From the IMG/VR virus record IMGVR_UViG_2869976549_000005: DNA of 41,251 nt, one strand, 5' to 3'. The translations under genes and the position numbers were made by a program. This document shows positions 727-39,514 of this stretch, in pieces. How positions within the stretch are numbered: the stretch's first letter is position 1; each line of letters starts with the position of its first letter. A model generated the notes under the pieces. That model made no database searches. It was not told the origin of the DNA and saw only the letters and a program-made list of their open reading frames with translations. This DNA is from a virus (Duplodnaviria > Heunggongvirae > Uroviricota > Caudoviricetes).

Positions 727-786
727 CCTCACACAACCGCAAAATCGGTTGTCGGGATTGGCGTCTCGGATAACATCACAACGCAT

Positions 787-808
787 AGCCGCGTTTGCGG
801 TTTTTTTT
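787..808 (+). terminator. intrinsic terminator / attenuator in the leader (hairpin CCGCGTTTGCGG + T8)
   Basis: GC hairpin at 789-800 followed by TTTTTTTT at 801-808, ~70 nt downstream of the predicted start; preceded by a second hairpin CAACCGcaaaatCGGTTG at 734-751. Confidence 0.45.
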
Positions 809-968
809 GCGTTAAGCATTGCCACATTCGCATTATGGTGGGGCGTGCAGGGGCGGAGAAATCCGCGCCGGGTTTTGTGATGACCGGTTACGCCAACCCT
901 GTACGTCTCACCACCTCCCTGATTGGCGTCAGAGGTGGTGATCATCCAATTAATTGGAGTCATCACAT

Positions 969-5684: not shown

Positions 5685-5748
5685 TGAGGTAGCCTGAGTT
5701 TAACGGACACTCCTTCCTGAAATAGAATGGCATCAGAAGGAGCTAATA

Positions 5749-6051
5749 ATGAGCAGAAAAACCCAACGTTACTCTAAAGAGTTCAAAGCCGAAGCTGTCA
5801 GAACGGTTCCTGAAAATCAACTTTCGATCAGTGAAGGCGCTTCCCGATTATCTCTTCCTGAAGGCACTTTAGGACAATGGGTTACCGCCGCCAGAAAAGG
5901 GCTCGGTACTCCTGGTTCCCGCACGGTGGCTGAACTGGAATCTGAAATTCTGCAACTGCGTAAGGCGTTAAATGAAGCTCGCCTTGAGCGAGATATATTA
6001 AAAAAAGCAACAGCGTATTTTGCACAGGAGTCGCTGAAAAATACGCGTTAA
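5749..6051 (+). CDS. IS600 OrfA (transposase N-terminal HTH component)
   Basis: MSRKTQRYSKEFKAEAVRTV..., 100 aa. Confidence 0.9.
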   Translation: MSRKTQRYSKEFKAEAVRTVPENQLSISEGASRLSLPEGTLGQWVTAARKGLGTPGSRTVAELESEILQLRKALNEARLERDILKKATAYFAQESLKNTR

Positions 6052-6086
6052 TCGAACAATGGCGACAACAATTTCCCATTGAAGCG

Positions 6087-6905
6087 ATGTGTCAGGTATT
6101 TGGTGTATCCAGGAGCGGTTATTACAACTGGGTACAGCATGAACCCTCAGACAGAAAACAAAGTGATGAGCGGCTAAAACTGGAGATTAAGGTGGCACAT
6201 ATCCGCACTCGCGAAACATATGGAACCCGGCGGCTCCAGACGGAGCTGGCAGAGAATGGCATCATTGTTGGTCGTGACCGACTGGCACGTCTTCGTAAGG
6301 AGCTAAGGCTACGCTGTAAGCAGAAACGCAAGTTCAGAGCGACTACGAACTCGAACCACAATCTGCCAGTTGCGCCAAATCTGCTGAACCAGACGTTCGC
6401 TCCTACAGCACCAAATCAGGTCTGGGTGGCGGACCTGACGTATGTTGCCACACAGGAGGGATGGTTGTACCTCGCTGGCATCAAAGATGTTTATACGTGC
6501 GAAATTGTCGGCTACGCCATGGGAGAGCGCATGACAAAAGAGCTGACAGGTAAAGCCCTGTTTATGGCGCTCAGGAGCCAGCGCCCACCTGCCGGGCTAA
6601 TCCACCACTCTGATCGAGGTTCACAGTACTGCGCATACGATTACCGGGTCATACAGGAGCAGTCTGGTCTGAAAACATCAATGTCGCGTAAAGGTAACTG
6701 TTACGACAACGCTCCGATGGAAAGCTTCTGGGGAACGCTGAAAAATGAGAGCCTGAGCCACTATCGTTTTAATAACCGGGATGAAGCCATCTCAGTAATA
6801 CGGGAATACATTGAGATTTTCTACAATCGTCAGCGTCGTCACTCTCGTCTGGGGAATATCTCCCCGGCAGCCTTCAGGGAAAAATATCATCAGATGGCTG
6901 CTTAA
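6087..6905 (+). CDS. IS600 OrfB (transposase catalytic DDE component; expressed as OrfAB fusion by frameshift)
   Basis: 272-aa ORF with IS3-family integrase-core sequence. Confidence 0.9.
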   Translation: MCQVFGVSRSGYYNWVQHEPSDRKQSDERLKLEIKVAHIRTRETYGTRRLQTELAENGIIVGRDRLARLRKELRLRCKQKRKFRATTNSNHNLPVAPNLLNQTFAPTAPNQVWVADLTYVATQEGWLYLAGIKDVYTCEIVGYAMGERMTKELTGKALFMALRSQRPPAGLIHHSDRGSQYCAYDYRVIQEQSGLKTSMSRKGNCYDNAPMESFWGTLKNESLSHYRFNNRDEAISVIREYIEIFYNRQRRHSRLGNISPAAFREKYHQMAA

Positions 6906-6948
6906 AAAAAGAACAAATGGTAGTGTCCGCTATTGCCAGTACACCTCA

Positions 6949-20983: not shown

Positions 20984-21555
20984 CGTTTTATCGCAATCCT
21001 CAGTTGTTGTTTCAGCGCGTATGCCAGTTCTTTAGGCAGGCGTTCACGCCGGATACGGTCAACATTCTCATCAAATGCCTGTTTCAGTGGGGCCGCCATC
21101 GGGATTTTCACCACCTGAATGGGAAGGCGATTACGCTTTTTCCTTCCCTTGTCGTCATTGCCCTCCTCATATCTGGCCTGGGGAAGACGTTGCATAACAT
21201 GCCAGCGCCCATTATTTAATCGCTGGATAAATGCCCGCTGATAACGATGCTGACCGGCTTTGAGTATGCTGTTCGGACGACGCCCCAGCATTCTGATCCC
21301 CAGCTTAATCACAGGGAGATCACCGCGGTTAACGATAATTCTGGCATTCGGATTTCTGACCGTCGCCCGTTTCAGTCTGGACCGTTCCTTTACCAGTTTC
21401 CGTCTCACCCTGGTTTCCCGGGCAACCTGTGACGAAGACTGATTAATCGCCGTTGTGGCCACGCGGTTAATGGTCATTGCAGAAGCAGCCGGAATGGCGT
21501 TTTTACGAACCCGGCTCAGATTGTCAATCGCCTGATCAAGCCCTTTTATCGCCAT
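20980..21555 (-). CDS. Z: tail completion protein Z
   Basis: 191 aa MAIKGLDQAIDNLSRV... Confidence 0.8.
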   Translation of the reverse strand: MAIKGLDQAIDNLSRVRKNAIPAASAMTINRVATTAINQSSSQVARETRVRRKLVKERSRLKRATVRNPNARIIVNRGDLPVIKLGIRMLGRRPNSILKAGQHRYQRAFIQRLNNGRWHVMQRLPQARYEEGNDDKGRKKRNRLPIQVVKIPMAAPLKQAFDENVDRIRRERLPKELAYALKQQLRIAIKR

Positions 21556-21644
21556 AATTCACCCTGCGTTTATCGTCGCCGGTTAACTGCGGGTGGTTGC
21601 CCACGGTTGAGCCAGAGATAACAGCTGCCCCCGTCATCCGGAGA
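21556..21644 (-). pseudogene. probable 3' remnant of the gene upstream of Z (FII-like), cut by IS21
   Basis: Open frame ends at 21556 immediately before Z; upstream part replaced by the IS21 end. Confidence 0.3.
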
Positions 21645-21745
21645 TGTCAGCGCCAGTGATATAAGACGGTAATTCGCCATTTGGATTGTCCGCTCCACCC
21701 AACATGTTGTTTCCTTAAGGTTCTCACACCAGAAAGGACATCAAC

Positions 21746-23298
<1,553 letters not shown>

Positions 23299-23357
23299 TA
23301 GCCTGAGTTTAACGGACACTCCTTCCTGAAATAGAATGGCATCAGAAGGAGCTAATA

Positions 23358-23660
23358 ATGAGCAGAAAAACCCAACGTTACTCTAAAGAGTTCAAAGCCG
23401 AAGCTGTCAGAACGGTTCTTGAAAATCAACTTTCGATCAGTGAAGGCGCTTCCCGATTATCTCTTCCTGAAGGCACTTTAGGACAATGGGTTACCGCCGC
23501 CAGAAAAGGGCTCGGTACTCCTGGTTCCCGCACGGTGGCTGAACTGGAATCTGAAATTCTGCAACTGCGTAAGGCGTTAAATGAAGCTCGCCTTGAGCGA
23601 GATATATTAAAAAAAGCAACAGCGTATTTTGCACAGGAGTCGCTGAAAAATACGCGTTAA
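23358..23660 (+). CDS. IS600 OrfA
   Basis: 100 aa, identical family to 5749-6051. Confidence 0.9.
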   Translation: MSRKTQRYSKEFKAEAVRTVLENQLSISEGASRLSLPEGTLGQWVTAARKGLGTPGSRTVAELESEILQLRKALNEARLERDILKKATAYFAQESLKNTR

Positions 23661-23695
23661 TCGAACAATGGCGACAACAATTTCCCATTGAAGCG

Positions 23696-24514
23696 ATGTG
23701 TCAGGTATTTGGTGTATCCAGGAGCGGTTATTACAACTGGGTACAGCATGAACCCTCAGACAGAAAACAAAGTGATGAGCGGCTAAAACTGGAGATTAAG
23801 GTGGCACATATCCGCACTCGCGAAACATATGGAACCCGGCGGCTCCAGACGGAGCTGGCAGAGAATGGCATCATCGTTGGTCGTGACCGACTGGCACGTC
23901 TTCGTAAGGAGCTAAGGCTACGCTGTAAGCAGAAACGCAAGTTCAGAGCGACTACGAACTCGAACCACAATCTGCCAGTTGCGCCAAATCTGCTGAACCA
24001 GACGTTCGCTCCTACAGCACCAAATCAGGTCTGGGTGGCGGACCTGACGTATGTTGCCACACAGGAGGGATGGTTGTACCTCGCTGGCATCAAAGATGTT
24101 TATACGTGCGAAATTGTCGGCTACGCCATGGGAGAGCGCATGACAAAAGAGCTGACAGGTAAAGCCCTGTTTATGGCGCTCAGGAGCCAGCGCCCACCTG
24201 CCGGGCTAATCCACCACTCTGATCGAGGTTCACAGTACTGCGCATACGATTACCGGGTCATACAGGAGCAGTCTGGTCTGAAAACATCAATGTCGCGTAA
24301 AGGTAACTGTTACGACAACGCTCCGATGGAAAGCTTCTGGGGAACGCTGAAAAATGAGAGCCTGAGCCACTATCGTTTTAATAACCGGGATGAAGCCATC
24401 TCAGTAATACGGGAATACATTGAGATTTTCTACAATCGTCAGCGTCGTCACTCTCGTCTGGGGAATATCTCCCCGGCAGCCTTCAGGGAAAAATATCATC
24501 AGATGGCTGCTTAA
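23696..24514 (+). CDS. IS600 OrfB
   Basis: 272 aa. Confidence 0.9.
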   Translation: MCQVFGVSRSGYYNWVQHEPSDRKQSDERLKLEIKVAHIRTRETYGTRRLQTELAENGIIVGRDRLARLRKELRLRCKQKRKFRATTNSNHNLPVAPNLLNQTFAPTAPNQVWVADLTYVATQEGWLYLAGIKDVYTCEIVGYAMGERMTKELTGKALFMALRSQRPPAGLIHHSDRGSQYCAYDYRVIQEQSGLKTSMSRKGNCYDNAPMESFWGTLKNESLSHYRFNNRDEAISVIREYIEIFYNRQRRHSRLGNISPAAFREKYHQMAA

Positions 24515-24714
24515 AAAAAGAACAAATGGTAGTGTCCGCTATTGCCAGTACACCTCAGTTAGTCAGCTTCTTATCGAACTTGAGCTGAAGGATCTTAAAA
24601 CAAGTTTCCATAGTGCTCCTGGATTTTCTCTTTTTGGACATTGACGTCTCCACTGGTTTAAACACGGCAATGGAGACTGTGGTGAAAAGAGTTAATTCCC
24701 GGAGTGACTGGCGA

Positions 24715-24847
24715 ATTCCAATCAATGATCGGAAGTATGCCAAATCGTGATCGATTGTGATGCCAAACTGTGATCGGAGATGGATGCCAAATCATGATCG
24801 ATTCGAATGCCAAACTGCGATCGATTCAGATGCCATTTTGCAATCAG
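24715..24847. repeat. tandem array of about six 22-24-bp direct repeats, each with a GATC site (consensus ATGCCAAAYNRYGATCGATT)
   Basis: Contiguous units at 24737, 24760, 24784, 24807 plus degenerate copies at 24715 and 24830; no spacers. Confidence 0.7.
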
Positions 24848-24947
24848 CGCCAGAACAGCAGCTGACAGGCCGTATTTGATTTTTGCGCTCATGGATATTT
24901 ATCAGGATGCTACCAATGAAAGATACTGGAAAGCCAACTGCAAAAAG

Positions 24948-25262
24948 CTAACAACCCGTAATCGAGTTATCAGAACTGTTAATTTTTATGGTATACCGCG
25001 CCTCTGAACAGGGGCGCGTTTCTGGCAACAGCTCGTCCCCTTCACATAACCCGGCAGCAACATCCAGGAAGACCTGTCTGATGCTCCTTCTGGCTGCTGC
25101 CTCATAAAACTCCAGCGCGGCACCTTCAACACGGTCCAGCGAGATGTCCAGGTCAAAAATTTCACCGTCAAAGCGTTTTTTGTCCCGTAACGCTAAAGTT
25201 ACCGTAACTTTATTCTCAAAATTGCGGATCCCTTTCACAATCAGTTCATAGTTTTGAGTCAT
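24948..25262 (-). pseudogene. DUF1327-like (YdfO/YbcV-type) prophage protein, probably C-terminally corrupted
   Basis: N-terminus MTQNYELIVKGIRNFENKVTVTLALRDKKRFDGEIFDLD... recalled as the YdfO/YbcV family; C-terminal 25 aa read through a hairpin/terminator. Confidence 0.35.
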
Positions 25263-25266
25263 TGAA

Positions 25267-25482
25267 TTACTCTCCCCGTGCAGCCTTACGACGGTCCTCT
25301 CTGATTTTGAAATACAGGTTAGTCAGATATGTCAGCAGCCCAAACAGCAGACTCCCCAGCACGCCTATTGCCGCCCACTGAGACGGGGAAACCCTGTCCA
25401 GCAACTGCAGGAACCAGTAGCCCGTTCCCACCGCTGACGTGGTGTATGACACACCTGTTGTGATTTTTTCCATCTGGTACAT
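25267..25482 (-). CDS. phage-21-type class II holin (pinholin S21) with dual start (71-aa and 68-aa forms)
   Basis: [13 protein letters not shown]...[50 protein letters not shown]; two TMDs; Met1 and Met4 dual-start pattern. Confidence 0.75.
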
Positions 25483-25632
25483 ACCCCGTCTCCCGTTATC
25501 CGGAAGCTGACAACAATAAAAAAAGCCACCAGTTAAGTACTGATGGCTCTGATAACTCATGCAGGCATCTCAGACGACCCACTGACACTACCGGTGAGTT
25601 TAACGATACCTTCCATTTGGCTGGCTCACTTT

Positions 25633-27486: not shown

Positions 27487-27721
27487 GAATCCTCCCGGCC
27501 GGGATAATATTGTGAGTAAAATAAGGAGCGGGCTGAAGTCCGGAAGTTACAGGACAATGGCAGAAGAGAGACGACAGCCCGCAATTCGAAAAAGACCGCG
27601 CAGTTGCGCAGAGTGATTACTATGGGGTATTATTCGCCAGCTGAAATATTACTTCACGTTTTATTGTTTATTCCTTGCCGCCCGCGTCTCCCAGCGCGGG
27701 CTTTTTTTGCCCACAAGAAAA

Positions 27722-27950
27722 CCCCTCCGGAGAGGGGCTAAAGCCGCGTATCTGTATCATCATGCACATGGTGCCGGGTGCCTCCCGGTGAGTTCAGCCC
27801 GGTGCCACTAAACCCGCGTCATTCTCGTTTTGATAATCAGAGATTATACCGTCACCAGTCGCCCCTCCGCTCAGGGGGATTCACCATGCGAAATTTTTTT
27901 AACAAATGCCCAGTCTGACAGGCAACTGTCAACTTACTGAATTGTGAGCA
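27722..27950 (-). repeat. structured non-coding element, paralogue A
   Basis: Shares hairpin blocks with 29475-29685: CCCCTCCGGAGAGGGG, TGCCGGGTGCCTCCCGGTGA, CGCCCCTCCGC-CAGGGGGATTCACCATGC, AACTGTCAAC, CTGAATTGTGAG. Confidence 0.6.
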
Positions 27951-28084
27951 ACATAGCATTTAACGGGGAACCTGTTTTCTGCAGTAAAAAGGCCCACCGG
28001 AGCGGATGGGCCTGGAAGGATGAGGTAGCCTGAGTTTAACGGACACTCCTTCCTGAAATAGAATGGCATCAGAAGGAGCTAATA

Positions 28085-28387
28085 ATGAGCAGAAAAACCC
28101 AACGTTACTCTAAAGAGTTCAAAGCCGAAGCTGTCAGAACGGTTCTTGAAAATCAACTTTCGATCAGTGAAGGCGCTTCCCGATTATCTCTTCCTGAAGG
28201 CACTTTAGGACAATGGGTTACCGCCGCCAGAAAAGGGCTCGGTACTCCTGGTTCCCGCACGGTGGCTGAACTGGAATCTGAAATTCTGCAACTGCGTAAG
28301 GCGTTAAATGAAGCTCGCCTTGAGCGAGATATATTAAAAAAAGCAACAGCGTATTTTGCACAGGAGTCGCTGAAAAATACGCGTTAA
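28085..28387 (+). CDS. IS600 OrfA
   Basis: 100 aa. Confidence 0.9.
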   Translation: MSRKTQRYSKEFKAEAVRTVLENQLSISEGASRLSLPEGTLGQWVTAARKGLGTPGSRTVAELESEILQLRKALNEARLERDILKKATAYFAQESLKNTR

Positions 28388-28422
28388 TCGAACAATGGCG
28401 ACAACAATTTCCCATTGAAGCG

Positions 28423-29241
28423 ATGTGTCAGGTATTTGGTGTATCCAGGAGCGGTTATTACAACTGGGTACAGCATGAACCCTCAGACAGAAAACAAAGT
28501 GATGAGCGGCTAAAACTGGAGATTAAGGTGGCACATATCCGCACTCGCGAAACATATGGAACCCGGCGGCTCCAGACGGAGCTGGCAGAGAATGGCATCA
28601 TCGTTGGTCGTGACCGACTGGCACGTCTTCGTAAGGAGCTAAGGCTACGCTGTAAGCAGAAACGCAAGTTCAGAGCGACTACGAACTCGAACCACAATCT
28701 GCCAGTTGCGCCAAATCTGCTGAACCAGACGTTCGCTCCTACAGCACCAAATCAGGTCTGGGTGGCGGACCTGACGTATGTTGCCACACAGGAGGGATGG
28801 TTGTACCTCGCTGGCATCAAAGATGTTTATACGTGCGAAATTGTCGGCTACGCCATGGGAGAGCGCATGACAAAAGAGCTGACAGGTAAAGCCCTGTTTA
28901 TGGCGCTCAGGAGCCAGCGCCCACCTGCCGGGCTAATCCACCACTCTGATCGAGGTTCACAGTACTGCGCATACGATTACCGGGTCATACAGGAGCAGTC
29001 TGGTCTGAAAACATCAATGTCGCGTAAAGGTAACTGTTACGACAACGCTCCGATGGAAAGCTTCTGGGGAACGCTGAAAAATGAGAGCCTGAGCCACTAT
29101 CGTTTTAATAACCGGGATGAAGCCATCTCAGTAATACGGGAATACATTGAGATTTTCTACAATCGTCAGCGTCGTCACTCTCGTCTGGGGAATATCTCCC
29201 CGGCAGCCTTCAGGGAAAAATATCATCAGATGGCTGCTTAA
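28423..29241 (+). CDS. IS600 OrfB
   Basis: 272 aa. Confidence 0.9.
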   Translation: MCQVFGVSRSGYYNWVQHEPSDRKQSDERLKLEIKVAHIRTRETYGTRRLQTELAENGIIVGRDRLARLRKELRLRCKQKRKFRATTNSNHNLPVAPNLLNQTFAPTAPNQVWVADLTYVATQEGWLYLAGIKDVYTCEIVGYAMGERMTKELTGKALFMALRSQRPPAGLIHHSDRGSQYCAYDYRVIQEQSGLKTSMSRKGNCYDNAPMESFWGTLKNESLSHYRFNNRDEAISVIREYIEIFYNRQRRHSRLGNISPAAFREKYHQMAA

Positions 29242-29474
29242 AAAAAGAACAAATGGTAGTGTCCGCTATTGCCAGTACACCTCAGGATAGCGGTCATGTG
29301 ATGCCGGTTTCCCGGTAACTCAGCACCGGTATCTGAGTCAACGTTTTCTCTACTGGGTCATTTCCGATACGCCCTGCCTGCTGACAGGCTTTCATCACAT
29401 CTGAAAATATAGCACCCTGACTGATACTGTAGTACCTAAGGTTCCAGAAACTGTGATGTATCCGGCACAGAAAA

Positions 29475-29685
29475 GCCCCTCCGGAGAGGGCTGGAGAGTG
29501 GCGCTATGTGCCATTGCATGATGCCGGGTGCCTCCCGGTGAATTCAGTACCAGCACCTGAATCCGCGATTATCCCATATACCTACTCGCTGATTGCCCCT
29601 CCGCACAGGGGGATTCACCATGCCAGTTTCTTTTAACAAACTCCCCGCAAAACAGACAACTGTCAACCGTCTGAATTGTGAGACA
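29475..29685 (-). repeat. structured non-coding element, paralogue B
   Basis: See 27722-27950; conserved hairpins with compensatory loop differences. Confidence 0.6.
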
Positions 29686-29843: not shown

Positions 29844-31181
29844 CATAAGCGCTAACTTAAGGGTTGTGGTATTACGCCTGATATGATTTAACGTGCCGAT
29901 GAATTACTCTCACGATAACTGGTCAGCAATTCTGGCCCATATTGGTAAGCCCGAAGAACTGGATACTTCGGCACGTAATGCCGGGGCTCTAACCCGCCGC
30001 CGCGAAATTCGTGATGCTGCAACTCTGCTACGTCTGGGGCTGGCTTACGGCCCCGGGGGGATGTCATTACGTGAAGTCACTGCATGGGCTCAGCTCCATG
30101 ACGTTGCAACATTATCTGACGTGGCTCTCCTGAAGCGGCTGCGGAATGCCGCCGACTGGTTTGGCATACTTGCCGCACAAACACTTGCTGTACGCGCCGC
30201 AGTTACGGGTTGTACAAGCGGAAAGAGATTGCGTCTTGTCGATGGAACAGCAATCAGTGCGCCCGGGGGCGGCAGCGCTGAATGGCGACTACATATGGGA
30301 TATGATCCTCATACCTGTCAGTTCACTGATTTTGAGCTAACCGACAGCAGAGACGCTGAACGGCTGGACCGATTTGCGCAAACGGCAGACGAGATACGCA
30401 TTGCTGACCGGGGATTCGGTTCGCGTCCCGAATGTATCCGCTCACTTGCTTTTGGAGAAGCTGATTATATCGTCCGGGTTCACTGGCGAGGATTGCGCTG
30501 GTTAACTGCAGAAGGAATGCGCTTTGACATGATGGGTTTTCTGCGCGGGCTGGATTGCGGTAAGAACGGTGAAACCACTGTAATGATAGGCAATTCAGGT
30601 AATAAAAAAGCCGGAGCTCCCTTTCCGGCACGTCTCATTGCCGTATCACTTCCTCCCGAAAAAGCATTAATCAGTAAAACCCGACTGCTCAGCGAGAATC
30701 GTCGAAAAGGACGAGTAGTTCAGGCGGAAACGCTGGAAGCAGCGGGCCATGTGCTATTGCTAACATCATTACCGGAAGATGAATATTCAGCAGAGCAAGT
30801 GGCTGACTGTTACCGTCTGCGATGGCAAATTGAACTGGCTTTTAAGCGGCTCAAAAGTTTGCTGCACCTGGATGCTTTGCGTGCAAAGGAACCTGAACTC
30901 GCGAAAGCGTGGATATTTGCTAATCTACTCGCCGCATTTTTAATTGACGACATAATCCAGCCATCGCTGGATTTCCCCCCAGAAGTGCCGGATCCGAAAA
31001 GAAGAACTAACTCGTTGTGGAGAATAACAAAAATGGTCATCTGGAGCTTACAGGTGGCCATTCGTGGGACAGTATCCCTGACAGCCTACAAAACGCAATT
31101 GAAGAACGCGAGGCATCGTCTTAACGAGGCACCGAGGCGTCGCATTCTTCAGATGGTTCAACCCTTAAGTTAGCGCTTATG
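29844..31181 (+). mobile_element. IS186 (IS4 family), 1338 bp, inserted at a GGGG-N7-CCCC site with ~12-bp target duplication
   Basis: Termini CATAAGCGCTAACTTAAGGGTTG...CAACCCTTAAGTTAGCGCTTATG; GGGACTTGAACCC duplicated on both sides. Confidence 0.9.
29893..31173 (+). CDS. IS186 transposase
   Basis: MNYSHDNWSAILAHIGKPEELDTSARNAG... 426-aa ORF. Confidence 0.9.
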   Translation: MPMNYSHDNWSAILAHIGKPEELDTSARNAGALTRRREIRDAATLLRLGLAYGPGGMSLREVTAWAQLHDVATLSDVALLKRLRNAADWFGILAAQTLAVRAAVTGCTSGKRLRLVDGTAISAPGGGSAEWRLHMGYDPHTCQFTDFELTDSRDAERLDRFAQTADEIRIADRGFGSRPECIRSLAFGEADYIVRVHWRGLRWLTAEGMRFDMMGFLRGLDCGKNGETTVMIGNSGNKKAGAPFPARLIAVSLPPEKALISKTRLLSENRRKGRVVQAETLEAAGHVLLLTSLPEDEYSAEQVADCYRLRWQIELAFKRLKSLLHLDALRAKEPELAKAWIFANLLAAFLIDDIIQPSLDFPPEVPDPKRRTNSLWRITKMVIWSLQVAIRGTVSLTAYKTQLKNARHRLNEAPRRRILQMVQPLS

Positions 31182-31367: not shown

Positions 31368-32426
31368 TCATCCGTTCTGGCTGACTAAATCCTGTACTTC
31401 CCGAACCGTCTGCTCAAAACGTTCAGTCTCCAGCTCAACGCCAATTGCACGACGCCCGAGCGCCAGTGCCGCTTTCACTGTCGAACCCAACCCCATGAAA
31501 AAATCTGCAATCAGGTCACCCGGACGACTGCTAGCGCTGATTATCTGCTGCAGCATTTCTGCCGGTTTTTCGCACGGATGTTTCCCGGGATAGAACTGCA
31601 CCGGTTTATGCGTCCACACATCGGTATACGGCACCTGCACCGTCACGCCAAAATACCGCCGCAGATGTTTATATTCACTCAGCAGCTCCGCATACTGCCG
31701 GTTCAGTGAGGTATACGTATCCACCAGCTGGTGGTGGAGCTTTTCCAGTTCACCACGCCGATGCTTCTCTTCTGCCACCCGGGCAAACAGCGCCTGTAAT
31801 TTCAGATAATCGCTTTCATTCGGCAACTGCCACTGACCGGCACTGAACCAGTGCGACACCATGTTTTTCTTTCCTGTGGCATCTGCAATCTGTTTTGCCG
31901 TTATCCCCAGGGCAGCTCGCGCATCACGAAAGTAAGAAATCAGCGGGGCCATCACATGCTGTTTCAGTGCACTGCCCTTCGCCGCATACCCGGCATCTTT
32001 CGGACGATACGGCCCCTGATAATGTTCCGCGAACAGAATGCGCTCTGTGGCGGGGAAATACGCCCGCAGGCTTTCCTTGTTGCATCCGTTCCAGCGTCCG
32101 GACGGCTTCGCCCAGATAATATGGTTCAGCACACTGAAGCGTTCACGCATCATGATTTCGATATCAGATGCCAGGCGATGACCACAGAACAGGTAAAGAC
32201 TTCCGGCAGGTTTCAGCACCCGCCAGAACTGCGCCAGACACTGGTCCAGCCACTTCAGGTAATCATCGTCGCCCTTCCACTGGTTATCCCAGCCCTCAGG
32301 CTTCACTTTAAAGTACGGCGGGTCCGTGACTATCAGGTCAACAGAATTTTCGGGTAACGACCGGATAAATTCCAGGCAGTCGGCGTTGATTAACTCACAA
32401 CTGGATATTTTTACAGTATTAAGCAT
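31368..32426 (-). CDS. orphan DNA methyltransferase (amino-methyltransferase; DPPY motif N-terminal, FxGxG SAM motif C-terminal)
   Basis: DLIVTDPPY near the N-terminus and DFFMGLGST near the C-terminus; no adjacent restriction endonuclease gene. Confidence 0.8.
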   Translation of the reverse strand: MLNTVKISSCELINADCLEFIRSLPENSVDLIVTDPPYFKVKPEGWDNQWKGDDDYLKWLDQCLAQFWRVLKPAGSLYLFCGHRLASDIEIMMRERFSVLNHIIWAKPSGRWNGCNKESLRAYFPATERILFAEHYQGPYRPKDAGYAAKGSALKQHVMAPLISYFRDARAALGITAKQIADATGKKNMVSHWFSAGQWQLPNESDYLKLQALFARVAEEKHRRGELEKLHHQLVDTYTSLNRQYAELLSEYKHLRRYFGVTVQVPYTDVWTHKPVQFYPGKHPCEKPAEMLQQIISASSRPGDLIADFFMGLGSTVKAALALGRRAIGVELETERFEQTVREVQDLVSQNG

Positions 32427-32576
32427 GGATCATTAAGCCTGTCTCTGATAGGCTCATTCTGCTTTTGCGCAAAGCAGTGGGCCTGAGGTTTGCTTGTGAA
32501 CCCAACGCATGAGCAGATGGCTGGTGGGTGCCCCTAACACCCACCAGCCGCCCATTTACCACAAATAAAAAAGCCT

Positions 32577-32774
32577 TCACTGCGGAAGGCGTCTGTAACA
32601 ACCGAACTGATAGTCTGCCAGACCCGCCATAACCAGCTGGGTCAGTATTAACTGGCAGCGTTCGCGTGAAAGGTAAGTATTCTGCGCTATCTCCCCGACT
32701 GTCGCCGGTTCGGTAACGCTTAATTCATTAAACACCACTCTGGCGGTTTCTGTCATATCCTGCTGTTTTAGCAT
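32577..32774 (-). CDS. small DNA-binding-like protein (65 aa), hypothetical
   Basis: ORF directly downstream of pR'/tR'; followed by a hairpin + T6 terminator. Confidence 0.35.
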   Translation of the reverse strand: MLKQQDMTETARVVFNELSVTEPATVGEIAQNTYLSRERCQLILTQLVMAGLADYQFGCYRRLPQ

Positions 32775-32894
32775 GTCTTTTCCTTTTCCGGTTAACGTGA
32801 CACACCAATAACTCTTGTCGAAAAAGCCAGCAAGCTGAAAGACAGGTATTCACCGCCACCAGCGCGTTTACTGTACTGACGCGATTTCAGTCAT

Positions 32895-32918
32895 AAAAAA
32901 CCCGCTCGGCGGCGGGTT
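32895..32918 (-). terminator. tR'-like intrinsic terminator downstream of the late promoter
   Basis: Minus-strand AACCCGCCGCCGAGCGGGTT followed by TTTTTAT. Confidence 0.65.
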
Positions 32919-32965
32919 GTAGAAACTCTTCTAACGTCAGGCATAAAACGCCCATCGTTATGACG

Positions 32966-32993
32966 AATTTACCACAGATTCCGGAAAAATCAA
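32966..32993 (-). promoter_or_regulatory. pR'-like late promoter (TTGATT - 16 bp - TAAATT) immediately after the Q-like gene
   Basis: -10 TAAATT identical to lambda pR'; sits directly 3' of the putative Q stop with tR' ~50 nt downstream. Confidence 0.55.
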
Positions 32994-32998
32994 CCTTG

Positions 32999-33820
32999 TT
33001 ACCTAGTTACCTTTTTTAACTGCCGCTCAGCCCATGCTTCTTCAATATCAAACCGGGTCACCAGCGCATCATAAAATTTCTTAACTGTTTTTTCCCATGA
33101 CGCGCGTGTTATCTGGTTTGTCACCTCGCATATAGCATTAAATGCCTCCGTTGATGGTAGTCTTTCATAGCCACGACCACCACAACGCTGGCAGTCTCTG
33201 ATAACAGGCATACCACGTTTTACCGACTCTTCACGATGAATGGCGACACCACGCCCACGGCAATCCTTACAGGCGGTGGAAACCTCACCCTTTCCGCCAC
33301 ACTCCGGACAGGCAACTTTTACCACCTCCCTGACTTTTTTCCATTCTTCCCAGTAAGACGGATACACACCTTTCGTACACTTTGCCCATACCGGCGGCTT
33401 ACCATCCGGATACTGGATCTTGTTTGTAAAAACCTCGCTTTCAATAAATTTTTTTCCGTGACAGCAGGGGCACTGTTTTTTGCTCGCCGCGCTACGGGCA
33501 TAATCTTCAAACGCATACGAAGCCATAATACGCATCACTGCCGGTTTTATTTCTGCCGGGAGTTTTCTTAACGCCGCCACGCGATCACACCGACTGAGTG
33601 CATATTCTGTCAGCAATTCTGTTGCCCGCTCTCTGTCATTCATACTAATGCCCATTTTCCCAAGGAACGCAGAAACCCCCATCTCAGCCCGATTCTGTGT
33701 CATGCCCTGCGCGGCCATCACATCAGTGATACTCAGCGCATCTTTCGACGTTGAGGCCGATGCATCAGTCAGGCCGGGGGATTTTGGGGAGTAGTATTTC
33801 GGTAAATCTTCCAGTTTCAT
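32999..33820 (-). CDS. putative late antiterminator Q (273 aa) with four CxxCxGxG zinc-finger motifs
   Basis: Assigned mainly by position (between RusA and pR'/tR'); motifs CPCCHGKK, CPECGGKG, CKDCRGRG, CQRCGGRG. Confidence 0.5.
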   Translation of the reverse strand: MKLEDLPKYYSPKSPGLTDASASTSKDALSITDVMAAQGMTQNRAEMGVSAFLGKMGISMNDRERATELLTEYALSRCDRVAALRKLPAEIKPAVMRIMASYAFEDYARSAASKKQCPCCHGKKFIESEVFTNKIQYPDGKPPVWAKCTKGVYPSYWEEWKKVREVVKVACPECGGKGEVSTACKDCRGRGVAIHREESVKRGMPVIRDCQRCGGRGYERLPSTEAFNAICEVTNQITRASWEKTVKKFYDALVTRFDIEEAWAERQLKKVTR

Positions 33821-35833: not shown

Positions 35834-35989
35834 TTACTCCTCAGGTTCGTAAGCTGTGAAGACAGCGACCTCCGTCTGGCCGGTTCGAATTCGTACCTCG
35901 CAGAGGTCTTTCCTCGTTACCAGTGCCGTCACTATGACGGTTAAACAGATGACGATCAGGGCGATTAACATCGCCTTTTGCTGCTTCAT
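35834..35989 (-). CDS. hok: Hok/Gef-family type I toxin (51 aa; RelF/HokD-like)
   Basis: MKQQKAMLIALIVICLTVIVTALVTRKDLCEVRIRTGQTEVAVFTAYEPEE; AAGGAG RBS; in-frame upstream extension to 36046. Confidence 0.85.
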   Translation of the reverse strand: MKQQKAMLIALIVICLTVIVTALVTRKDLCEVRIRTGQTEVAVFTAYEPEE

Positions 35990-36200
35990 AGCCTGCTTCT
36001 CCTTGCCTTTCGGCACGTAAGAGGCTAACCTAGATTTGCCGTTCATAGATTGAGCCTCAGATTAATGTTAAGCGTCTTGCCGGACGCGTAATGTTAACTG
36101 GGGCTTTTCTCTATCTGCCTTTTGGTGTTCATGCCTGAGACAGATAGCCTCAAGCACCCGCTGCAATTCTACTTAACTCTCCTTTTCCCGCAAACCGTTT

Positions 36201-38250: not shown

Positions 38251-38293
38251 TGAGGTGTACTGGCAATAGCGGACACTACCATTTGTTCTTTTT

Positions 38294-39112
38294 TTAAGCA
38301 GCCATCTGATGATATTTTTCCCTGAAGGCTGCCGGGGAGATATTCCCCAGACGAGAGTGACGACGCTGACGATTGTAGAAAATCTCAATGTATTCCCGTA
38401 TTACTGAGATGGCTTCATCCCGGTTATTAAAACGATAGTGGCTCAGGCTCTCATTTTTCAGCGTTCCCCAGAAGCTTTCCATCGGAGCGTTGTCGTAACA
38501 GTTACCTTTACGCGACATTGATGTTTTCAGACCAGACTGCTCCTGTATGACCCGGTAATCGTATGCGCAGTACTGTGAACCTCGATCAGAGTGGTGGATT
38601 AGCCCGGCAGGTGGGCGCTGGCTCCTGAGCGCCATAAACAGGGCTTTACCTGTCAGCTCTTTTGTCATGCGCTCTCCCATGGCGTAGCCGACAATTTCGC
38701 ACGTATAAACATCTTTGATGCCAGCGAGGTACAACCATCCCTCCTGTGTGGCAACATACGTCAGGTCCGCCACCCAGACCTGATTTGGTGCTGTAGGAGC
38801 GAACGTCTGGTTCAGCAGATTTGGCGCAACTGGCAGATTGTGGTTCGAGTTCGTAGTCGCTCTGAACTTGCGTTTCTGCTTACAGTGTAGCCTTAGCTCC
38901 TTACGAAGACGTGCCAGTCGGTCACGACCAACGATGATGCCATTCTCTGCCAGCTCCGTCTGGAGCCGCCGGGTTCCATATGTTTCGCGAGTGCGGATAT
39001 GTGCCACCTTAATCTCCAGTTTTAGCCGCTCATCACTTTGTTTTCTGTCTGAGGGTTCATGCTGTACCCAGTTGTAATAACCGCTCCTGGATACACCAAA
39101 TACCTGACACAT
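38294..39112 (-). CDS. IS600 OrfB
   Basis: 272 aa. Confidence 0.9.
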   Translation of the reverse strand: MCQVFGVSRSGYYNWVQHEPSDRKQSDERLKLEIKVAHIRTRETYGTRRLQTELAENGIIVGRDRLARLRKELRLHCKQKRKFRATTNSNHNLPVAPNLLNQTFAPTAPNQVWVADLTYVATQEGWLYLAGIKDVYTCEIVGYAMGERMTKELTGKALFMALRSQRPPAGLIHHSDRGSQYCAYDYRVIQEQSGLKTSMSRKGNCYDNAPMESFWGTLKNESLSHYRFNNRDEAISVIREYIEIFYNRQRRHSRLGNISPAAFREKYHQMAA

Positions 39113-39147
39113 CGCTTCAATGGGAAATTGTTGTCGCCATTGTTCGA

Positions 39148-39450
39148 TTAACGCGTATTTTTCAGCGACTCCTGTGCAAAATACGCTGTTGCTTTTTTTA
39201 ATATATCTCGCTCAAGGCGAGCTTCATTTAACGCCTTACGCAGTTGCAGAATTTCAGATTCCAGTTCAGCCACCGTGCGGGAACCAGGAGTACCGAGCCC
39301 TTTTCTGGCGGCGGTAACCCATTGTCCTAAAGTGCCTTCAGGAAGAGATAATCGGGAAGCGCCTTCACTGATCGAAAGTTGATTTTCAGGAACCGTTCTG
39401 ACAGCTTCGGCTTTGAACTCTTTAGAGTAACGTTGGGTTTTTCTGCTCAT
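39148..39450 (-). CDS. IS600 OrfA
   Basis: 100 aa. Confidence 0.9.
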   Translation of the reverse strand: MSRKTQRYSKEFKAEAVRTVPENQLSISEGASRLSLPEGTLGQWVTAARKGLGTPGSRTVAELESEILQLRKALNEARLERDILKKATAYFAQESLKNTR

Positions 39451-39514
39451 TATTAGCTCCTTCTGATGCCATTCTATTTCAGGAAGGAGTGTCCGTTAAA
39501 CTCAGGCTACCTCA

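Follow-up and report, generated by a model that had tools for sequence, protein, structure and literature searches.

A conserved, structured RNA leader precedes M.EcoGII-type adenine methylase genes of lambdoid prophages and may gate their expression

The prophage-encoded methylases M.EcoGII and M.EcoGI of E. coli O104:H4 C227-11 are the closest characterised relatives of the gene considered here (~93% full-length identity; Murray et al. 2018, PMC5778455). M.EcoGII is a beta-class enzyme of 349 amino acids (aa), differing from M.EcoGI at 16 of 349 positions, that methylates adenine irrespective of sequence context and, besides acting on DNA, binds and methylates RNA; it was 'not expressed' in the lysogen and deleterious upon expression, and its authors proposed that it shields phage DNA from many restriction systems in lytic growth (PMC5778455). 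Reconstructed ancestors of its clade are still non-specific (PMC11551740). The enzyme itself is well characterised and is a commercial reagent, applied in footprinting of chromatin and RNA. On the natural control of such a dangerous methylase, with its silence in lysogens and its release during the lytic cycle, the authors who characterised it noted only that lack of expression. Here we analyse an M.EcoGII-type methylase gene and the spacer preceding it in a 41,251-nt stretch of Caudoviricetes DNA (IMG/VR record IMGVR_UViG_2869976549_000005; hereafter the window, to which all coordinates refer), and describe a conserved structured RNA leader that fills this spacer and would offer a testable handle on methylase control.

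The closest functional precedent is arguably the com-mom module of phage Mu. As there, a toxic, broadly adenine-modifying enzyme that would be silent in the lysogen is encoded at the end of a late transcription unit, and a small, putatively regulatory open reading frame (ORF) as well as predicted mRNA structure around the start codon precede the modification gene. However, no part is related: the small protein is predicted to be a winged helix without a Cys4 motif rather than a zinc-finger Com, the RNA comprises ~150 nt and several helices as compared to one or two hairpins in Mu, and lambdoid Q antitermination would take the place of Mu C and Dam/OxyR. By analogy, the present system may thus work like com-mom without belonging to it. 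In Mu-like prophages, com homologues also precede unrelated alpha-class non-specific adenine methylases, namely Hin1523, Nma1821 and Hia5 (Drozdz et al. 2012, PMC3299994). With regard to transcription, the late promoters of lambdoid phages fire constitutively, and their transcripts are terminated until Q intervenes (Sy et al. 2020, PMC7547250). The locus resembles the described pR'-qut-tR' units (lambda 6S RNA; StxS, PMC7547250) in having a constitutive-type late promoter and an early terminator after Q, and it resembles Shiga toxin (Stx) phages in placing the methylase module in the interval between Q and the stx or lysis genes. Unlike Stx phages, it carries another Q/promoter allele and no stx genes, and its predicted terminated RNA measures ~60 nt as compared to the 258-nt StxS of the Sakai Stx phages. 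The conserved leader lies downstream of tR' and hence outside StxS.

The core of the locus, all of it on the minus strand together with Q and the late promoter, consists of three elements:

32577..32774, minus strand: 65-aa protein of family phrog_331 (ORF list, profile match, predicted fold).
32427..32600, minus strand: conserved structured RNA leader, filling the spacer from the small-ORF stop to the methylase ATG (alignments, covariation, covariance model).
32426..31368, minus strand: M.EcoGII-family beta-class N6-adenine DNA methyltransferase, 352 aa (ORF list, Pfam, homologues).

The initial annotation of this region had listed a hairpin, the small ORF and the methylase as loosely associated elements and had proposed a structured upstream leader. 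All elements listed there were confirmed at their coordinates. The leader is real and considerably more elaborate than one hairpin: the three elements belong to a cassette of fixed layout, and a single conserved RNA element takes up its entire 150-nt spacer. Spacers of 147-150 nt separate the same two genes in Salmonella, Klebsiella, Pantoea and Citrobacter loci with 74-86% methylase identity, and small ORF, spacer and methylase follow each other in this order between Q and the lysis genes in every one of these fetched loci. The homologous spacers align with long invariant blocks. A genome-wide scan yielded 80 loci, from Escherichia to Yersinia, Hafnia, Serratia, Photorhabdus and Xenorhabdus, in most of which a sequence profile placed the spacer upstream of the methylase. 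Indels among 58 distinct leaders are single bases and not multiples of three, which argues that the spacer is not conserved on account of coding; two hidden ORFs (60 aa, 32601..32419; 33 aa, 32555..32454, MGGWWV) were rejected, since other genera have 1-nt indels and premature stops that disrupt both frames. Median identity to the window was even higher for the leader (0.80) than for adjacent coding DNA (0.72).

The leader is associated exclusively with this methylase family. A pattern built from its invariant blocks recovered at least 120 stretches in viral contigs, and among the matches listed, 115 of 120 have a DPPY-containing ORF of ~350 aa that starts 60-61 nt downstream. The window's own 150-nt spacer occurs 3088 times, in 1816 of 5426 complete E. 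coli genomes, and carries no annotated feature in any of them. Rfam returned no sense-strand match at E-values up to 5-10, either for the leader of the window or for a consensus-like Salmonella leader, at gathering as well as permissive thresholds; a weak plus-strand match to P26 was at chance level and was discarded as a candidate for a known RNA family. Sequence-word searches of the literature for the hairpin and the conserved blocks gave nothing relevant, and searches on M.EcoGII regulation, the Stx pR' region and the S. sonnei methylome turned up no description of the leader. Within the literature searched, the leader appears to be undescribed, and it would represent a new RNA motif in much-studied genomes, also in the segment of Stx phages that directly precedes the Shiga toxin genes.

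Covariation supports the fold. The top covarying column pair is Watson-Crick or wobble in 100% of cases (CG 32, AU 11, UA 10, UG 4), and the same pair (columns 99-138) reads CG 35, AU 15, UA 14 and UG 6 in alignment A4. When a five-helix model was scored on a MAFFT alignment, 79% of the cells were paired, as compared to at most 58% with the 3' partners slid, and none of 500 column shuffles matched this value. In the alignment fitted by the covariance model, 94.4% of cells were paired and 21 of 34 pairs changed on both sides (152 cells), with slid controls at 43% or below; as fitting biases an alignment toward the model, the MAFFT figure is the more cautious of the two. Many positions swap G-C for G-U or U-A for U-G, and such abundant G-U pairs permit the fold only on the sense strand, indicating an element that acts as RNA. 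Minimum-free-energy z-scores were -3.7 for the leader of the window and -4.4 for the Salmonella leader. Covariance model R1 matched the window once, with 164.8 bits, over positions 32415-32600. The leader is thus a real, widespread, strand-specific and covariation-supported RNA element, whose function we infer below.

Alignments and folds resolved the following parts of the leader:

32573..32590, minus strand: helix H1, GCCUUC/GAAGGC, overlapping the small-ORF stop; all 6 pairs vary on both sides.
32519..32549, minus strand: helix H2, a 12-bp hairpin GGCUGGUGGGUG / CACCCACCAGCC with a 7-nt loop, the core of leader domain 1.
32509..32555, minus strand: domain 1, in which helix A1 is stacked under H2, with a 4-nt bulge, AUCU, at 32518-32515.
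32428..32501, minus strand: domain 2, nested long-range helices (folds and alignment counts).

H1 and its adjoining U-run act as a terminator in the E. coli/Shigella phages; in other genera the stem shows covariation, often next to a degenerate U-run. H2 is the 12-bp-stem hairpin noticed earlier, and it proved to be a perfect inverted repeat (arms 32519-32530 and 32538-32549, 12 nt each, 100% complementary). It is conserved in other genera through compensatory substitutions: both sides vary in 10 of its 12 pairs, and 96.5% of cells are paired. By our own estimate, chance alone would give a 600-bp stretch ~1e-3 such perfect 12-bp repeats (~600 positions x ~40 loop sizes x 4^-12). H2 is not terminator-like, having no U-run (its 3' flank reads AUCUGCUCAUG on the sense strand and GCCCATTTACC on the other strand), and was dismissed as a terminator also because the terminator scan lists neighbouring hairpins and not H2 itself; a DNA cruciform or protein site was discounted because the many G-U pairs make the fold one-strand specific. 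Helix A1 joins AUGGGC (32555-32550) with GCUCAU (32514-32509), is paired in 98.9% of cells and shows only pair-preserving one-sided changes.

Domain 2 is formed by G(G/U)UCA at 32501-32497 pairing with UGAUC at 32432-32428 (positions -6 to -2 relative to the AUG), by AAGC at 32495-32492 pairing with GCUU at 32438-32435, and by GGCCCA(C) at 32483-32477 pairing with (A)UGAGCC at 32457-32451 around hairpin P4 (32476-32471 with 32465-32460). In addition, bulge base 32515 (U) covaries with 32491 (A), which reflects either a tertiary pair or an alternative helix, P3. The two-domain model (A) had 92.4% of cells paired as compared to 44% or less in slid controls, with few clean compensatory events, an example being one pair that changes from AU to GC in four sequences; changes in the basal helix are one-sided and in their large majority pair-preserving. 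A junction model (B; helices P1 and P3) instead pairs UGGGC with GCCCA and UUXGC with GCYAA and makes use of the strongly covarying X-Y pair, which could equally be a contact between bulge and loop within the two-domain fold. Photorhabdus and Xenorhabdus loci (L063-L093) have a shortened leader of ~85-105 nt, located ~100 nt upstream of the methylase, that keeps the extended hairpin of domain 1 together with the small ORF and is without domain 2; this favours domain 1 as drawn in the two-domain model. Two further candidate helices were abandoned: GCUCAU:AUGAGC, drawn by eye, is inconsistent with variants of the Hafnia group and of locus L037, and a 'split Shine-Dalgarno' hairpin, AUCAG:CUGAU (GAG near the AUG), is broken by a U-to-C change in ~20 sequences.

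The gene downstream of the leader is a known kind of orphan late-operon phage N6-adenine methylase, and by homology the enzyme itself is nothing new. Pfam model PF01555 (N6_N4_Mtase) matches aa 29-340 with E=7.9e-42 and 144 bits against a cut-off of 26.7, and the two motifs reported initially for the 352-aa product of ORF 32426..31368 are present, with the catalytic DPPY at aa 35-38 (invariant in 120 of 120 homologues) and the C-terminal AdoMet (S-adenosylmethionine)-binding FxGxG motif as FMGLG at aa 310-314. Its structural relatives in the PDB are all beta-class amino-methyltransferases, among them M.RsrI, CcrM, M.MboIIA and DpnA. Homology places the protein with the DNA N6-adenine methyltransferases and not with a non-DNA enzyme. 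We found 324 of 349 residues (about 93%) identical to M.EcoGII as given in Table S1 of PMC11551740, a machine-read copy in which three of the differences look like reading errors, and 333 of 352 (95%) identical to the enzyme of phage 1720a-02, which has been named as very similar to M.EcoGII (PMC5778455). It shares with M.EcoGII the N-terminal DPPY, the central helical target-recognition domain, the C-terminal FxGxG and an orphan position in a lambdoid prophage. It differs in length (352 as compared to 349 aa), in a C-terminal tail common to the phage 1720a-02 enzyme and in ~20 substitutions, including S313L in motif I. The protein scores far under the curated cut-offs of specific-enzyme models (PRK11524, 111 as compared to 292 bits; CcrM, 71.5 as compared to 830). 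Given that its closest characterised relative methylates adenine in any context, this particular allele would be expected to methylate non-specifically as well, and there is most probably no target motif to assign to it. The claimed absence of a restriction partner was borne out, the neighbours being Q, RusA, a DUF968 protein, tRNAs, insertion sequence (IS) elements, an esterase and a holin. Elsewhere in the window, at 24715-24847, just downstream of the DUF1327 gene, there are ~5 tandem copies of a ~22-bp unit, ATGCCAAAyyGTGATCGATTs, each with a GATC.

Upstream of the small ORF, the region bears the signals of a lambdoid late operon:

32999..33820, minus strand: Q antiterminator, 273 aa (Pfam PF03589 Antiterm), whose Cys-rich, zinc-finger-like central region matches the DnaJ central domain.
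32951..32993, minus strand: pR'-like late promoter, read by eye.
32892..32918, minus strand: first intrinsic terminator, tR'-like, with its stem at 32918-32899, AACCCGCCGCCGAGCGGGUU followed by UUUUUAU.

The late promoter directly follows the Q stop, with a -35 element TTGATT (32993-32988), a 16-nt spacer and an extended -10 element TGgTAAATT that ends at 32966. Six bases further on, AACGATGGG at 32959-32951 comprises a -10-like pause element, AACGAT, followed by GGG, an arrangement of promoter and promoter-proximal pause that presumably matches lambda pR'/qut. With the promoter after the Q stop and tRNAs 3' of the methylase, the position between pR' and the tRNA cluster given by the initial annotation holds. 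A second intrinsic terminator, identified by the terminator scan, consists of helix H1 (32590-32573) and the U-run at 32572-32563 and overlaps the small-ORF stop; both terminators precede the methylase and have sense-strand orientation. The RNA from pR' to the first terminator (32895-32998, minus strand) gave only chance-level matches in Rfam (Trp_leader, E=0.23; isrK, E=1.8).

The reading we favour, and hold with moderate confidence, is that an M.EcoGII-type methylase is kept silent by terminators and by a two-domain leader that gates its translation until Q-driven late transcription sets in. Since the enzyme harms its host, several layers of silencing would be expected in the lysogen. Constitutive transcripts from the late promoter would end at the first terminator ~50-60 nt downstream, a second terminator would follow after the small ORF, and only Q-modified RNA polymerase would pass both, making methylase expression presumably Q-dependent. 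The leader would then gate translation initiation, or processing coupled to initiation, such that methylase is made only from bona fide late transcripts and leaky read-through in the lysogen yields no enzyme, in functional analogy to com-mom control in Mu. That the leader acts on translation, and in the direction of restraint, is suggested by the surroundings of the start codon: no homologue has a Shine-Dalgarno-like sequence within 15 nt of the methylase ATG, and the most 3' helix of the leader abuts the AUG, the UGAUC predicted to pair with the conserved GGUCA ending two bases before it. A thermodynamic test weakly supports a translation gate: for 33 of 41 leaders, the predicted accessibility of the initiation region was lower than when the sequence upstream was shuffled (0.38 as compared to 0.46). 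A leader of this kind might also serve as a compact regulatory part for toxic genes.

The 65-aa ORF (32774..32577) pointed out initially is a member of a conserved family, phrog_331 (E=1.4e-37; 334 cluster representatives), to which no function is assigned there. Many of its relatives are called 'TrmB family transcriptional regulator' by NCBI, a likeness by name only; both this label and 'site-specific DNA-methyltransferase' for the methylase are misleading at this locus and call for correction. The predicted fold is a winged helix (predicted local distance difference test score, pLDDT, 80), for which a Foldseek search for a specific relative gave only generic winged-helix neighbours with E > 1e-3, including DNA-binding IclR/MarR domains and RNA-binding SelB winged helices. 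A homologue of the small ORF occurs in 38 of 59 full-leader loci and in 21 of 21 short-leader loci, and leaders with and without it can be nearly identical. Leader and methylase being kept without the small ORF, the leader is maintained independently of the small protein, which is a frequent and dispensable companion of the leader-methylase unit. As a separate observation, a 79-aa protein replaces the winged-helix ORF in a Kosakonia sacchari locus (L028, 2058-2297) and in a record titled Vagococcus sp. (L029); located ~200 nt upstream of the methylase, it has two CxxC pairs, is zinc-ribbon-like and recalls Com.

In this region begins the late operon of a lambdoid prophage that is defective and has no stx; the allele is that of Shigella sonnei. 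Residue 313 of the methylase, the second x of FxGxG (codon 31489-31491, minus strand), is Leu, while 120 family representatives down to 74% identity comprise 119 with Ser, one with Asn and none with Leu. Leu313 was found only in the Shigella sonnei allele, of which it appears to be a fixed peculiarity; the identical protein is present in thousands of assemblies, including that of Shigella sonnei 53G. The aligned residue is Val in active CcrM and Thr in TTHA0409, so S313L cannot be called inactivating, and we did not uphold it as a clear inactivation. The prophage as a whole is disrupted by two kinds of IS element, a burden typical of Shigella:

29845..31180, plus strand: IS4-family (IS421-like) element inside argN, with a 13-nt target duplication.
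5685-6948, 23290-24558, 28018-29285 and 38251-39514, three plus-strand and one minus-strand: IS3-family element (orfA, 100 aa; orfB, 272 aa) present in four copies with at least 99.8% mutual identity.

The IS4-family element separates the methylase from argO and the remaining late operon; beyond it, similarity to Stx2a phages resumes and stops ~50 nt short of the stxA position. At ~21500-25600, lysis genes (holin, DUF1327), an IS copy and a 390-aa ORF are followed directly by genes for the tail (Minor_tail_Z, tail U, major tail). No terminase, portal or head genes are present, and the interval between holin/DUF1327 (~25 kb) and the tail genes (~21.5 kb) leaves no space for them. The prophage can therefore not form particles. 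Thus, the protective role that had been suggested for the orphan methylase agrees with the proposal of the M.EcoGII authors (PMC5778455) as far as the family is concerned, but finds no phage DNA to protect in this strain. Q, promoter, small ORF, leader and methylase are all intact despite the defective state of the prophage.

Several observations weigh against a Q-released, leader-gated methylase as set out above. The methylases of Erwinia endophytica (L033) and Pantoea sp. (L049), 73-76% identical, have neither a recognisable leader nor a small ORF. In 21 of 59 full-leader loci the small ORF is missing, its place before the leader being taken by Q with a terminator or by an unrelated gene, and a small protein dispensable in a third of loci departs from the Mu precedent. 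Regarding the RNA, two partly exclusive folds fit the data (the P1/P3 junction, and two domains with a tertiary pair), and the helices beside the AUG are nearly invariant, with the consequence that covariation hardly tests them; the difference in accessibility is slight and is not seen in 8 of 41 leaders. The late promoter, recognised by eye, is absent from the output of a generic consensus promoter scan (8/12 matches). Finally, this methylase copy could be impaired through S313L inside the AdoMet-binding FxGSG motif, and the module may never be induced in this defective prophage.

Some of these points bear on what kind of RNA the leader is. It is possible, though we advance it only tentatively, that the spacer represents an undescribed cis-regulatory RNA class and a true switch, driven by a ligand, a protein or polymerase kinetics, that licenses methylase translation only on Q-antiterminated late transcripts; if so, about a third of E. 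coli genomes, and prophages throughout the Enterobacterales, would make use of such a switch. That the leader toggles between two folds in response to a ligand or factor, be it as a riboswitch for a metabolite such as S-adenosylmethionine or S-adenosylhomocysteine, as an operator bound by the methylase or as a kinetic fold dependent on the Q-modified polymerase, strikes us as distinctly improbable. Long invariant unpaired segments and a multi-helix architecture are typical of RNAs that bind ligands or proteins, two mutually exclusive helix sets (P1/P3; A1 and domain 2) each have partial support, and M.EcoGII does bind and methylate RNA; yet no known riboswitch class matches and no ligand is indicated by the data, the X-Y covariation fits a single fold as a tertiary pair and so does not require a switch, and retention of domain 1 only, as in Xenorhabdus and Photorhabdus, would be unusual for a ligand pocket. 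Domain 1, for its part, resembles a signal for RNA processing, being a long, nearly perfect duplex of ~18 bp with an asymmetric bulge, the sole part kept in shortened leaders and part of a unit within a long polycistronic late transcript that also carries tRNAs needing processing. Cleavage of an RNase III-type signal, as in the lambda N leader or T7 early mRNAs, might then free the methylase mRNA from the RNA preceding it and determine its half-life or reshape its 5' end, with no direct translational gate. We consider it quite unlikely that the leader is mainly such a processing or stability element, as these signals rarely need so much invariance in unpaired segments over 150 nt, and the missing Shine-Dalgarno sequence and the pairing beside the AUG suggest a role in translation; one leader could serve both functions.

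Other alternatives concern the proteins rather than the RNA. The 65-aa winged-helix protein might be a dedicated activator or controller of the methylase, acting on leader RNA like Mu Com or on DNA like C-proteins: its ORF lies immediately upstream at a fixed distance wherever present, winged helices bind DNA and, in SelB, an RNA hairpin, and com with non-specific adenine methylases sets a precedent. We nonetheless regard this as improbable, for 21 loci keep a near-identical leader and methylase without the ORF, the protein is unrelated to zinc-finger Com, and its fold matches are generic. As to the copy at hand, S313L, seen in 0 of 120 family representatives, the missing head and terminase genes and five IS copies, one cutting the late operon just downstream of the methylase, could mark a decaying, non-functional remnant that yields no active enzyme. 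We think this unlikely, if far from negligible, in view of the intact methylase ORF, leader, small ORF, Q and promoter, retention of the identical protein in thousands of S. sonnei assemblies and the Val of active CcrM. Almost no credence, in turn, is given to a sequence-specific orphan methylase (Dam-like or with another motif) with a regulatory role in prophage or host and the repeats at 24715-24847 among its targets, as had been entertained at the outset. GATC-bearing ~22-bp repeats do occur there, and automatic NCBI annotation often labels homologues 'site-specific DNA-methyltransferase'; however, identities of 93-95% to enzymes shown or inferred to be non-specific, scores well under the cut-offs of the specific models and the silence of the family in lysogens all speak against it, and the action of the closest characterised relative in any sequence context leaves the link to the GATC repeats unsupported.

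Upstream neighbours of the methylase are a DUF968/HNH protein, RusA and Q; downstream follow tRNAs, IS elements, a SASA/DUF1737 esterase and the holin. The tRNA genes are:

31327-31252, minus strand: ileZ-like tRNA(CAT), downstream of the methylase.
31238-31178, minus strand: truncated argN tRNA, downstream of the methylase.
29805-29729, minus strand: argO, tRNA-Arg(TCT), beyond the IS4-family insertion.

In DNA searches, the segment from the first terminator, where similarity to Stx phages starts, to the tRNAs matched ~290 phage records, mostly Stx2-converting phages, in which the same segment lies between Q and ileZ-argN-argO-stx2AB with the order Q, small ORF, methylase, tRNAs preserved. 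In Salmonella, Klebsiella, Pantoea and Citrobacter, where the methylase is likewise encoded between Q and the lysis genes, Q belongs to three different Pfam families. In a Citrobacter-type contig (L014, 653-3331), Q and the small ORF are separated by a moron that encodes an EcoRII-type restriction enzyme together with a C5-cytosine methylase, and HicAB toxin-antitoxin pairs occupy comparable positions in loci L011 and L014. Downstream of the tRNAs, the window contains two full-length matches to the STnc100 small RNA family (161 and 124 bits) at 27709-27918 and 29463-29652 on the minus strand; they flank one copy of the IS3-family element, which suggests a duplicated or recombined segment. Rfam further assigned a sok antitoxin RNA to 35984-36159 (minus strand) in the nin region, with a hok-type ORF in related loci, and adjacent isrK and C4 antisense RNAs to 733-918 (plus strand) at one end of the window.

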